IMG/VR virus record: IMGVR_UViG_3300031419_000581
Origin: a virus
Taxonomy: Duplodnaviria > Heunggongvirae > Uroviricota > Caudoviricetes
DNA: 64,000 bases
Strand: one strand, 5' to 3'
Shown here: positions 9,471 through 11,231 of the stretch, in pieces
Numbering within the stretch: the first letter of the stretch is position 1
Layout: every line of letters begins with the position of its first letter
Notes under the pieces: generated by a model
What the model saw: only the letters and a program-made list of their open reading frames with translations
The model's database searches: none
What the model was told of the DNA's origin: nothing
Made by a program: the position numbers and the translations under genes

Positions 9471-11231
9471 ATGCAAATTTCAGTATCATATGAAGATATG
9501 AAAAAACAGGTTCCTGATCTGGTTGAATCTGTTGAAAGTCGTGCAAAAGGTGTAAAAAATGGTAGTTTTGATGGTTCTTCTGATCCACAAAGCTGGAAGT
9601 GGTTTGTGGAAGTTGAAGATAAGTTTGCAGATAATAACATTCCTGCACTTATGTATTACAATCAGCCTATCGATAAAAACTCACCAGATGTTAAAAGTGA
9701 AAGATTGGTCGATAATGACAAGCTTGCATTGTCAAACGAAGATTTTGTAAAAAAATATATGTCTATGGGAGTCATTAACGCCCGTTTAGGTGTTATTGCA
9801 GGAAAAGCAAAAGTTGATACCTCTATTACGCATGTGGATAGCATTCCAACAGATCTTCTGCAAATGTATGCTATGAAAGAAAACAATGCTCAGCCTACCG
9901 GTCATAAATTGTTGTCAGTTTATAAGGGAGAAAGAAATCCAGGTCAGCCAGGTGTTGCAAAAGTTGCTATTGTTGCGGCATTTGAAAAAGAAGATGGTCA
10001 GTTCATGTTGTTAACCAAAGAAAGCAACAATATGGAGAGACTGTTTATTCGTGGGATTGATGAAAAAACCAATAGTGTTATGACTTATGGAACAATTCTG
10101 GAAAATTCGCAAGGCTGGGATGTTGAAGAAGGTAAATACTGGAAAGACGTTTCTACTGTTGGCTGGAAAAGAATTTCAGCAGATGAAATTGAGAAAAAAT
10201 TTGCAAAAGATGTTCTGAAAGAAGAATTCGATTTCGACAAATGGTCAAATCTTTCAAAAGGCATGGCTCTGGCAGCAGTATTCGGTGATGATTTTACAGT
10301 AGATGCAAGGGTAGCTCCATTTGACGCAGATGCACTAAATGATTCGGTTCGTTATTTTGAATATGGTGAAGAATTATCTGATCGCGAGTTTATCGAAAAT
10401 AAATGGGCGATGTTTGATAAGTTAACGCCAGATGGTCTCGACAGAGGCAAAAAGCCTATGTCAATTGGAGAGATCATCAAAAATGGTGATACTGAAGGTC
10501 TGCGTATTATGATTGAAGAATATAAAACAACAGGTGCGTATGACAAAATCTTTGTTGAAAATAACGAAGAACAAAATATTTCAACGCTGCTGTTCCATAC
10601 TGCAGCAACGGGTACACCTGAAATGATGCAAATGCTGATTGATCTTGGCGCTGACCCAAGCCGTGAATTTATTAAAGAAATTGCAAAAGGTATGTTCTCG
10701 CATTATCCAGTTATGCATAATGCAATTATGGGTGAAAATACAGAAGTTGTTAAATTCATGATTGAGAAAGGTTATGAAGGTATTGAAAATCGTTTCACCA
10801 GCACTGAGACATGGTTAATGTTTGCCGTAACAGAAGGTAAACTGAAAAGTGCTGATATGCTTCTTGAAATGGGTGCTGACATTAATGCTACAACTTTCCA
10901 TGGCAATACGGCATTGCATCTTGCGGCAAGTAAGGCAAATGCATTAGCTCTGGAATGGCTGATTAAGCATGACGCAGATCCAACGATTGAAAATCCTGCT
11001 GGAAAATTATATTCAGAAATGTTGGATGATGGTGAAGAATGGAATGAACTGTATAATTTCCTGGAAGATTACCGTGAAGCGAAAGAAAATGGAACTGAGT
11101 TCACGTTGCCAGAAGATTTTTATGATCGTGTAACTTACAAAAAAGAAGATGACGCAGCAGAACAACAGAAAAATATGCTTGCTCAGTTGCTTGCCAAAAT
11201 GCCAGGCGCTTCTAAAAAGCCAAGTCCATAA
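9471..11231 (+). CDS. Ankyrin-repeat protein, 586 aa
   Basis: C-terminal half has tandem ANK repeats (LLFHTAATGTPEMMQMLIDLGADP...; GNTALHLAASKANALALEWLIKHDADP); SD aaaaggtaa. Confidence 0.8.
   Translation: MQISVSYEDMKKQVPDLVESVESRAKGVKNGSFDGSSDPQSWKWFVEVEDKFADNNIPALMYYNQPIDKNSPDVKSERLVDNDKLALSNEDFVKKYMSMGVINARLGVIAGKAKVDTSITHVDSIPTDLLQMYAMKENNAQPTGHKLLSVYKGERNPGQPGVAKVAIVAAFEKEDGQFMLLTKESNNMERLFIRGIDEKTNSVMTYGTILENSQGWDVEEGKYWKDVSTVGWKRISADEIEKKFAKDVLKEEFDFDKWSNLSKGMALAAVFGDDFTVDARVAPFDADALNDSVRYFEYGEELSDREFIENKWAMFDKLTPDGLDRGKKPMSIGEIIKNGDTEGLRIMIEEYKTTGAYDKIFVENNEEQNISTLLFHTAATGTPEMMQMLIDLGADPSREFIKEIAKGMFSHYPVMHNAIMGENTEVVKFMIEKGYEGIENRFTSTETWLMFAVTEGKLKSADMLLEMGADINATTFHGNTALHLAASKANALALEWLIKHDADPTIENPAGKLYSEMLDDGEEWNELYNFLEDYREAKENGTEFTLPEDFYDRVTYKKEDDAAEQQKNMLAQLLAKMPGASKKPSP

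Follow-up and report, generated by a model that had tools for sequence, protein, structure and literature searches.

How does an ankyrin-repeat (ANK) gene that lacks the C-terminal ending borne by about one third of the open reading frames (ORFs) around it relate to the genes that carry that ending? The question is raised by positions 9471..11231 (+) of a 64,000-nucleotide stretch catalogued as virus record IMGVR_UViG_3300031419_000581, which was analysed over its whole length and is called the window here. The ORF has an ATG start and encodes 586 amino acids plus a stop, and we refer to its product as ANK586; its C-terminal residues read ...MPGASKKPSP (also given as ...AKMPGASKKPSP), and the ending found among its neighbours is arginine followed by leucine, isoleucine or methionine (R-[LIM]). 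A preliminary description had proposed that the tail-less ANK586 represents a second class of effector, but it behaves instead as a backbone gene, with synteny kept down to 28% identity, a core-like base composition and a ratio of nonsynonymous to synonymous substitution rates (dN/dS) of 0.07. ANK586 is a genuine protein of three modules, vertically inherited and confined to one AT-rich proteobacterial lineage; it lies in the conserved backbone of that lineage under purifying selection, and the tail is ancestrally absent from it.

Architecture and family of ANK586

On sequence evidence, ANK586 belongs to the ankyrin-repeat superfamily. It exceeded the gathering cut-offs of all five models of Pfam clan Ank, namely Ank_2 (PF12796; 72.4 bits against a cut-off of 27.3), Ank (PF00023; 55.6 against 21.1), Ank_3 (PF13606; 55 against 22.3), Ank_4 (PF13637; 47 against 22.7) and Ank_5 (PF13857; 43.2 against 27). 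The 586-residue ANK protein ending in KPSP had been recognized correctly, and the scan with ANK hidden Markov models (HMMs), on which the preliminary description had staked this assignment, gave an Ank_2 match at E=4.7e-20 across residues 416-507, with the best ANK stretches overall at 416-511. A profile of the family matched ankyrin-1/2 and DARPins among PDB sequences with E-values down to 6e-49. Our own ANK HMM, of 32 positions and built from 600 canonical repeats cut out of large ANK proteins, located four units in succession, at about 380-397, 416-434, 451-473 and 477-506, the last being the best (GNTALHLAAS). In the AlphaFold model of ANK586, helix pairs were seen at 369-380/383-391, 414-420/424-432, 448-454/458-466 and 481-487/491-499, and the protein thus has the tandem helix-turn-helix units of about 33 residues, with a TPLH-like motif, that characterize ankyrin solenoids.

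The first of the three modules is an N-terminal orphan alpha/beta domain (residues 1-328; 9471..10454, +). It is followed by the ankyrin solenoid (residues 329-512; 10455..11006, +), which opens with an N-terminal cap formed by a helix pair at about 331-354 (helices 332-337 and 341-354 in the AlphaFold model) and continues with four repeats at about 368-398, 414-446, 447-476 and 477-509, a 15-residue insertion occupying 399-413. The third module is a conserved C-terminal extension of 74 residues (513-586; 11007..11228, +) that is without R-[LIM] and comprises an EWNELYxFLEDYR helix, an LPEDFY motif, an acidic linker, a EQQKNMLAQLLAKM helix and, as its last part, Lys/Pro residues (KKPSP). The array, described earlier as C-terminal, does lie in the C-terminal half (about 329-512), but it does not reach the extreme end, where this extension stands behind it. 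No Sec signal was found in ANK586 (KD10 of 0.27 over the first 35 residues) and no transmembrane segment (maximum KD19 of 0.94). Terminator-like hairpins stand on both flanks, one at 9351..9378 (+), 3′ of an IscA-like gene and 5′ of ANK586, and the other at 11240..11261 (+), with a 9-bp stem and a T run beginning 9 nucleotides past the stop codon, which suggests that the gene is transcribed as a monocistronic unit.

The N-terminal domain is an orphan as judged from sequence searches, and from fold searches of a predicted model against PDB and BFVD it possibly has a new fold. Thirty-one of its columns are invariant in an alignment whose members share 26-63% identity with the window protein, including six tryptophans and several aspartates, glutamates, arginines and lysines, and the invariant motifs include RA..VK...FDG...P..W.W, PGV, WD, W.R, GE and KW...D. 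Pfam gave no match to residues 1-328 up to E<=10 in six members, a PDB sequence search with the domain found no match, and a profile search with it returned no homologue outside the ANK586 family and no new member. AlphaFold, given a diverse alignment of only six sequences, produced a model of the domain with a pLDDT of 86.4 and a pTM of 0.81, and all five models fell between 83 and 86. Searched with Foldseek, this model had no match below E=0.4 in PDB and one borderline match in the viral database BFVD (E=1.4e-3, TM 0.25).

In a search of 5.8 billion proteins, we found four full-length relatives of ANK586, at 96, 91, 66 and 38% identity, all from read-archive assemblies; the remaining matches of that search were ankyrin-only. 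A filter-free HMMER scan of 1.84 billion representative sequences with the full-length profile was swamped by giant ANK proteins but contributed three more full-length members (P0037, P0074 and P0076), whose N-terminal domains are 26-34% identical to that of ANK586. A close copy of P0076 is found on one JGI metagenome contig (L090). The family therefore counts eight full-length members including the window copy, of 586-609 residues and of a single architecture, and every relative found is metagenomic; an 8-mer scan of 185,579 species-representative genomes found none. Outside the family, the ANK proteins that ANK586 matches come from fungi, insects and bacteria, with identities of 23-45% and a coverage of 9-36% of the query, and "eukaryote-like", as the protein had been called, holds in the generic sense only, given that mixture.

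Besides KPSP, the C termini within the family are PSP (two members), PTP, SSK, KGP, MSF and NPNP, the copy in L090 also ending in NPNP. Because none of the eight members ends in R-[LIM], the missing tail is an ancestral state and not a recent loss, and the DNA 3′ of the ANK586 stop codon forms a terminator and does not encode a frameshifted tail. Across the loci used for comparison (L001-L005 and L086-L090), the gene order ribonucleotide reductase (RNR), HerA-like ATPase, (IscA), ANK and ClpP is kept while the identity of ANK586 drops from 96% to 28%.

The tailed cohort and the place of ANK586 outside it

The tail itself, first pointed out in the preliminary description, is real: R-[LIM] ends 21 of the 60 window ORFs of at least 100 residues, where composition predicts 0.42 (binomial 3e-30). 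Arginine stands at position -2 in every one of the 21, encoded by five different codons, with six codons serving for the last residue. All three stop codons are used and the downstream DNA is unrelated, and this diversity places the constraint on the protein; codon diversity likewise rules out a DNA-level origin of the tail. The residue before R-[LIM] is usually asparagine, serine or lysine, and upstream lie a lysine-rich polar linker and a helix of the form E-[KR]-x-x-L-x-x-x-L. None of the 21 tailed ORFs has a signal-peptide-like N terminus, compared with 10 of the 39 others. Tailed ORFs are largely not paralogous to one another, and in relatives the tail is retained even where the preceding residues have changed. 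With these properties, R-[LIM] looks like an undescribed export or sorting signal at the extreme C terminus, and literature searches found no published description of it.

Proteins of the PrtG/HasA class carry an extreme C-terminal type I secretion motif, and the peroxisomal signal PTS1 has the consensus [SAC]-[KRH]-[LM]. The likeness of the R-[LIM] tail to these two is presumably one of layout only: the tailed proteins have in common with them a constraint on the last two residues, an upstream lysine-rich linker with a helix, and no N-terminal signal. Unlike PTS1, however, they mostly have asparagine, not serine or alanine, at position -3, and unlike the type I systems they are accompanied by no type I secretion genes seen here.

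Tailed ORFs in the window include those at 1233-2279 (-), 13050-14420 (-), 24257-25969 (+), 32316-35177 (+), 48513-52739 (+) and 55918-58364, and R-[LIM] tails are also present in L001, L002, L003, L086 and L090. The sole detectable pairs of paralogues among them are 32316-33680 with 38669-40114 (26% identity) and 34210-34692 with 34704-35177 (33%), and the last of these four has a weak match to LPD29, a large polyvalent protein-associated domain. The ORF at 14370-15062 (+) gives 230 residues from a TTG start and then overlaps the tailed ORF at 13050-14420; versions in relatives have 177-178 residues, which makes the ATG at 14529 its probable real start. We also built a tail HMM, using the 32 C-terminal residues of each of the 21 tailed proteins. 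Its top score among non-tailed ORFs (11.1 bits) went to a 130-residue protein that adjoins a tailed gene and ends in NFKF (27612-28004, -), and a protein of one relative (L088, 1751-3388, -) ends in KKRF; both ends may be variant tails with a terminal phenylalanine.

At least four other ANK-like proteins had been said to carry the tail; two of these are firm and one is probable, while the fourth is doubtful. A 376-residue protein ending in NRI (50382..51512, +) has ANK repeats at about residues 19-107, with an Ank_2 match (7.3e-9) above the Pfam cut-off. The second firm case is a 379-residue protein ending in KRI (57225..58364, +), with ANK repeats at about 13-112; it scores under the Pfam ANK cut-offs and matches DARPins at E-values of 1e-12 to 1e-9. 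Probably a degenerate ANK protein is the 407-residue product of 51516..52739 (+), also ending in NRI, which was detected by Ank_3 (7.8e-4) and our own ANK HMM (E=0.0025) and had no match in PDB. The doubtful case, of 273 residues and again ending in NRI (46210..47031, +), was detected by Ank_2 only (8.4e-4), our own ANK HMM and a further search being negative for ANK. No ANK signal was found in the remaining 17 of the 21 tailed ORFs, so the 60 ORFs of the 64 kb include three firm ANK proteins (ANK586 and two tailed ones) and up to five. In L086, a distant relative, a strong ANK protein of 396 residues (540-1730, +) is also without the tail, ending in SPKY, and tail-less ANK proteins are thus not limited to the 586-residue family.

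ANK586 is outside the tailed cohort, departing from it in three defining features. Its last two residues are not arginine plus leucine, isoleucine or methionine. Its guanine-plus-cytosine (GC) content of 0.376 lies in the non-tailed, core range (0.33-0.41 for neighbouring backbone genes), away from the AT-rich composition of the tailed genes (0.279+-0.015); the GC of tailed and non-tailed ORFs differs with a Mann-Whitney p=3e-8. Finally, it does not share the rapid turnover of the cohort: compared with L002, identity is 68-97% for backbone genes, 66% for ANK586 and 30-48% for tailed genes, and in L003, L086 and L088 the backbone genes are present together with ANK586 orthologues at 38, 28 and 28% identity, whereas no orthologue of a tailed gene was detectable in these three loci. 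Estimates of dN/dS against L001 gave 0.008-0.09 for backbone genes, 0.067 for ANK586 and 0.13-0.43 for tailed genes, and within ANK586 the ratio is 0.094 for the N-terminal domain and 0.041 for the ANK region. Synteny, core-like GC, the dN/dS of 0.067 and the deep orthologues together make ANK586 a backbone gene under purifying selection. Over the deepest divergences it is the fastest of the backbone genes, at 28% identity against 45-81% for the others.

Neighbouring genes and the organism

The conserved neighbourhood upstream of ANK586 (4003..9318) comprises genes for a divergent class I RNR alpha subunit (4003-6918, +), a DUF87/HerA-like ATPase (7029-8363, +), an orphan 135-residue protein (8544-8951, +) and an A-type Fe-S carrier that is IscA-like (8965-9318, +), and downstream follows clpP (11851..12435, +). 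Genes for a Suv3-like helicase and FtsH are also near ANK586. The RNR alpha subunit is a long, extremely divergent NrdA of the Pseudomonas type, which scores 174 bits where the equivalog cut-off is 965. Exceeding even ClpP in conservation, the DUF87/HerA-like ATPase gene is the most conserved of the region, with a dN/dS of 0.02 and identities of 97% to L002 and of 74-77% to distant relatives; it is constantly paired with the orphan of about 135 residues, and its similarity to VirB4/TrwB is faint. The helicase at 19608-21890 (-), of 760 residues with Suv3 domains, is syntenic and conserved in relatives, and among solved structures its closest matches are the mitochondrial SUV3 proteins of human and yeast (E=2e-59), which is unusual in a bacterium.

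ANK586 and clpP are separated by a 620-bp spacer, in which long blocks are invariant relative to L002 although synonymous sites are saturated in the genes on either side. We noted there a candidate structured RNA of about 340 nucleotides on the minus strand (approximately 11290-11645), whose folding is stronger on that strand (z=-5.1) than on the plus strand (-3.0), with six pairs showing double changes and, at its 3′ end, a U-run together with a terminator hairpin (11317-11298); it matched no Rfam family.

Viral origin was rejected for the window, as ANK586 has no relative in IMG/VR and genes for ClpB, ClpP and FtsH are present together with signal-peptide-like N termini. The window is bacterial, and Proteobacteria are indicated by the best matches of its NrdA and, among those listed, of its ClpB. 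Its ClpP, IscA, ClpB, FtsH, RNR, HerA, Suv3 and Band 7 proteins are also present in the protein collection, on a contig of 157 kb, while exact-sequence contig look-ups with ANK586 and ClpB were empty. For ClpB (862 residues), the closest among the matches listed is 66% identical and comes from Betaproteobacteria, and ClpP scores above the NCBIfam cut-offs. FtsH (22078-24081, -) has at most 53% identity to anything outside the clade, and its named matches at about 43-48% include a Shigella FtsH/Yme1/Tma-family protein and proteins of Babeliales/Dependentiae. We also tried Candidatus Ichthyocystis as a candidate relative and rejected it, its expanded families being different (PMC4943182). The window has a GC content of about 32%, most of its ORFs scanned had no Pfam match, some of its N termini are signal-peptide-like and some lipoprotein-like, and neither a tRNA nor an Rfam family was found in the 64 kb.

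A host-associated lifestyle, which had been suggested from the ANK proteins, is plausible by indirect argument, from the AT-richness, the many orphan genes, a thymidine kinase (salvage) encoded in the window, a secreted GH5 cellulase, the density of ANK proteins and the large tailed cohort without Sec signals, and by analogy with intracellular bacteria, in which ANK proteins are enriched (PMC4943182). That relatives of ANK586 are known only from metagenomic assemblies was also counted toward it. The GH5 cellulase (17735-18910, +) has a signal peptide and is 86% conserved in L002; its presence may point to a cellulose-walled host or prey.

Possible roles of ANK586

By sequence comparison, ANK586 is outside every named Ank effector family compared. 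Against the NCBIfam equivalogs of the Legionella proteins AnkF, AnkY, AnkX, AnkH and AnkC it reached 18-32 bits, with cut-offs of 450-1400, and the matches were confined to its ANK region. Effectors that join an enzyme to ANK repeats include Legionella AnkX/LegA8 (FIC) and LegAS4 (SET) and Rickettsia RARP-2 (protease). Candidatus Ichthyocystis has a further such family, IchFam1, combining ShET2 with ANK (PMC4943182). ANK586 is like these in having a globular N-terminal domain followed by a short ANK array, with no Sec signal, and in coming from an AT-rich genome with many orphan genes, but its N-terminal domain, which has no Pfam match, is unrelated to FIC, SET, the clan CD protease or ShET2. 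Legionella AnkH/LegA3 is a core ANK effector of its whole genus, and ANK586 may be analogous in being conserved across its lineage while other putative effectors turn over fast; in contrast, the similarity between the two proteins is at the ANK level only (21.7 bits against a cut-off of 600). Ankyrin proteins with PRANC or F-box domains occur in poxviruses, Orientia and Wolbachia. As in these, the array of ANK586 precedes a short conserved C-terminal module, yet this extension has motifs of its own (EWNELYxFLEDYR, LPEDFY), and neither PRANC (PF09372) nor an F-box matched ANK586 in Pfam at E<=1. No system-specific component was recovered with PADLOC, whose matches were ANK-level only (PDC-M72A, 5e-14, residues 366-518; 'Ankyrin', 9e-5). 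Overall, what ANK586 shares with enzyme-plus-ANK effectors and with the core ANK effectors of a whole genus is design alone.

Our leaning, tentative and with confidence just short of even, is that ANK586 is a 'core' factor, conserved and directed at a host, whose delivery takes a route other than the tail. It rests on the restriction of the protein to one lineage, its faster divergence at depth and its effector-like architecture, and on the enrichment of ANK proteins in intracellular bacteria (PMC4943182). Mechanistically, the ankyrin solenoid would dock ANK586 on a single, specific partner protein, placing the N-terminal domain on that partner in a binding or a catalytic capacity, while the protein, being tail-less, would not be handled by the machinery that reads the tail. 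A bolder version, in which ANK586 is the lineage-wide core host-interaction factor of a hitherto undescribed group of host-associated proteobacteria, and in which its N-terminal domain has a new fold and a new activity and is aimed at a host protein by the ANK repeats, with tail-independent delivery, we consider unlikely.

Several observations count against a host-directed factor. ANK586 is without the tail borne by about one third of the ORFs, which argues against that route and perhaps against any delivery, and its core-like composition and selection fit an internal function equally well. No secretion genes were seen in the window or in the comparison loci, only the DUF87/HerA-like ATPase. 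None of the 31 fixed columns of the N-terminal domain is a cysteine, histidine or serine, so no catalytic mechanism can be named for it, and the alignment behind its model was shallow. The lineage, moreover, has no close placement, as ClpB matches reach at most 66% identity among those listed, FtsH is uninformative and the 8-mer scan was empty.

A role inside the bacterium comes a close second, though it too is less likely than not: ANK586 could be a lineage-specific housekeeping or regulatory adaptor whose ANK repeats bind a bacterial partner, for example one connected with the protease, Fe-S or nucleotide functions of its neighbours, and not an effector at all. Its backbone synteny with RNR, the HerA-like ATPase, IscA and ClpP, a GC content and dN/dS resembling those of its neighbours, the missing tail in all family members and the presence of one copy per contig in all contigs examined speak for this reading. 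Other bacteria, however, have no homologue, as judged from HMMER against the 1.84 billion representatives and from the N-terminal profile search, and ANK586 diverges far faster at depth than its true housekeeping neighbours. Nor is it co-transcribed with them, going by the hairpins on both sides, and in L086 it is divergently oriented beside RNR.

That ANK586 belongs to the tailed cohort after all, through a variant or degenerate signal in which the amphipathic helix (EQQKNMLAQLL...) is read without R-[LIM], is improbable. All family members do retain a helix of the pattern E-x-x-K-L-x-x-[FL]-L, behind which come about ten polar, Lys/Pro residues, and the 7.9 bits that ANK586 obtained with the full tail HMM, the second-best value among non-tailed ORFs, lie within the leave-one-out range of true tailed members (1.7-17.9). 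Once the last three model positions were removed, though, the score fell to 3.0 bits, which is noise level; the GC, selection and conservation of ANK586 are all unlike those of the cohort, and the arginine at -2, found in 21 of 21 tailed ORFs and kept in orthologues with other changes in the tail, looks essential. It is very improbable that ANK586 is carried passively, whether as part of a mobile element or as a component of some defence, immunity or toxin system: the HerA-like ATPase two genes upstream does match the HerA and DndH models of PADLOC, ANK domains are found in some defence and immunity proteins and ANK586 has a weak, ANK-level NCBIfam match to MzaA, but its PADLOC and NCBIfam matches are ankyrin-level and far under the family cut-offs, it has neither a relative in IMG/VR nor an integrase or repeat boundary, its position is stable with vertical inheritance over deep divergence, and the HerA-like gene is the most conserved of the region, unlike genes of defence islands.

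What is new in ANK586 is a small family of eight members, in what is otherwise one more bacterial ankyrin protein, and a candidate new domain at its N terminus, with a confident model that is unlike any known sequence family or solved fold. As a single-copy syntenic marker, the gene can serve to retrieve more members of the lineage from metagenomes. It also provides an internal control for the R-[LIM] tail, the more striking feature of the window: here an ANK gene of the same genome is seen in a conserved and tail-less form, and the contrast sharpens the case for the tail as the mark of a distinct, fast-evolving and probably exported cohort. If ANK586 were indeed a host-interaction factor with tail-independent delivery, R-[LIM] on about one third of the neighbouring ORFs would be an undescribed export or sorting signal, and the organism would be running two delivery codes.

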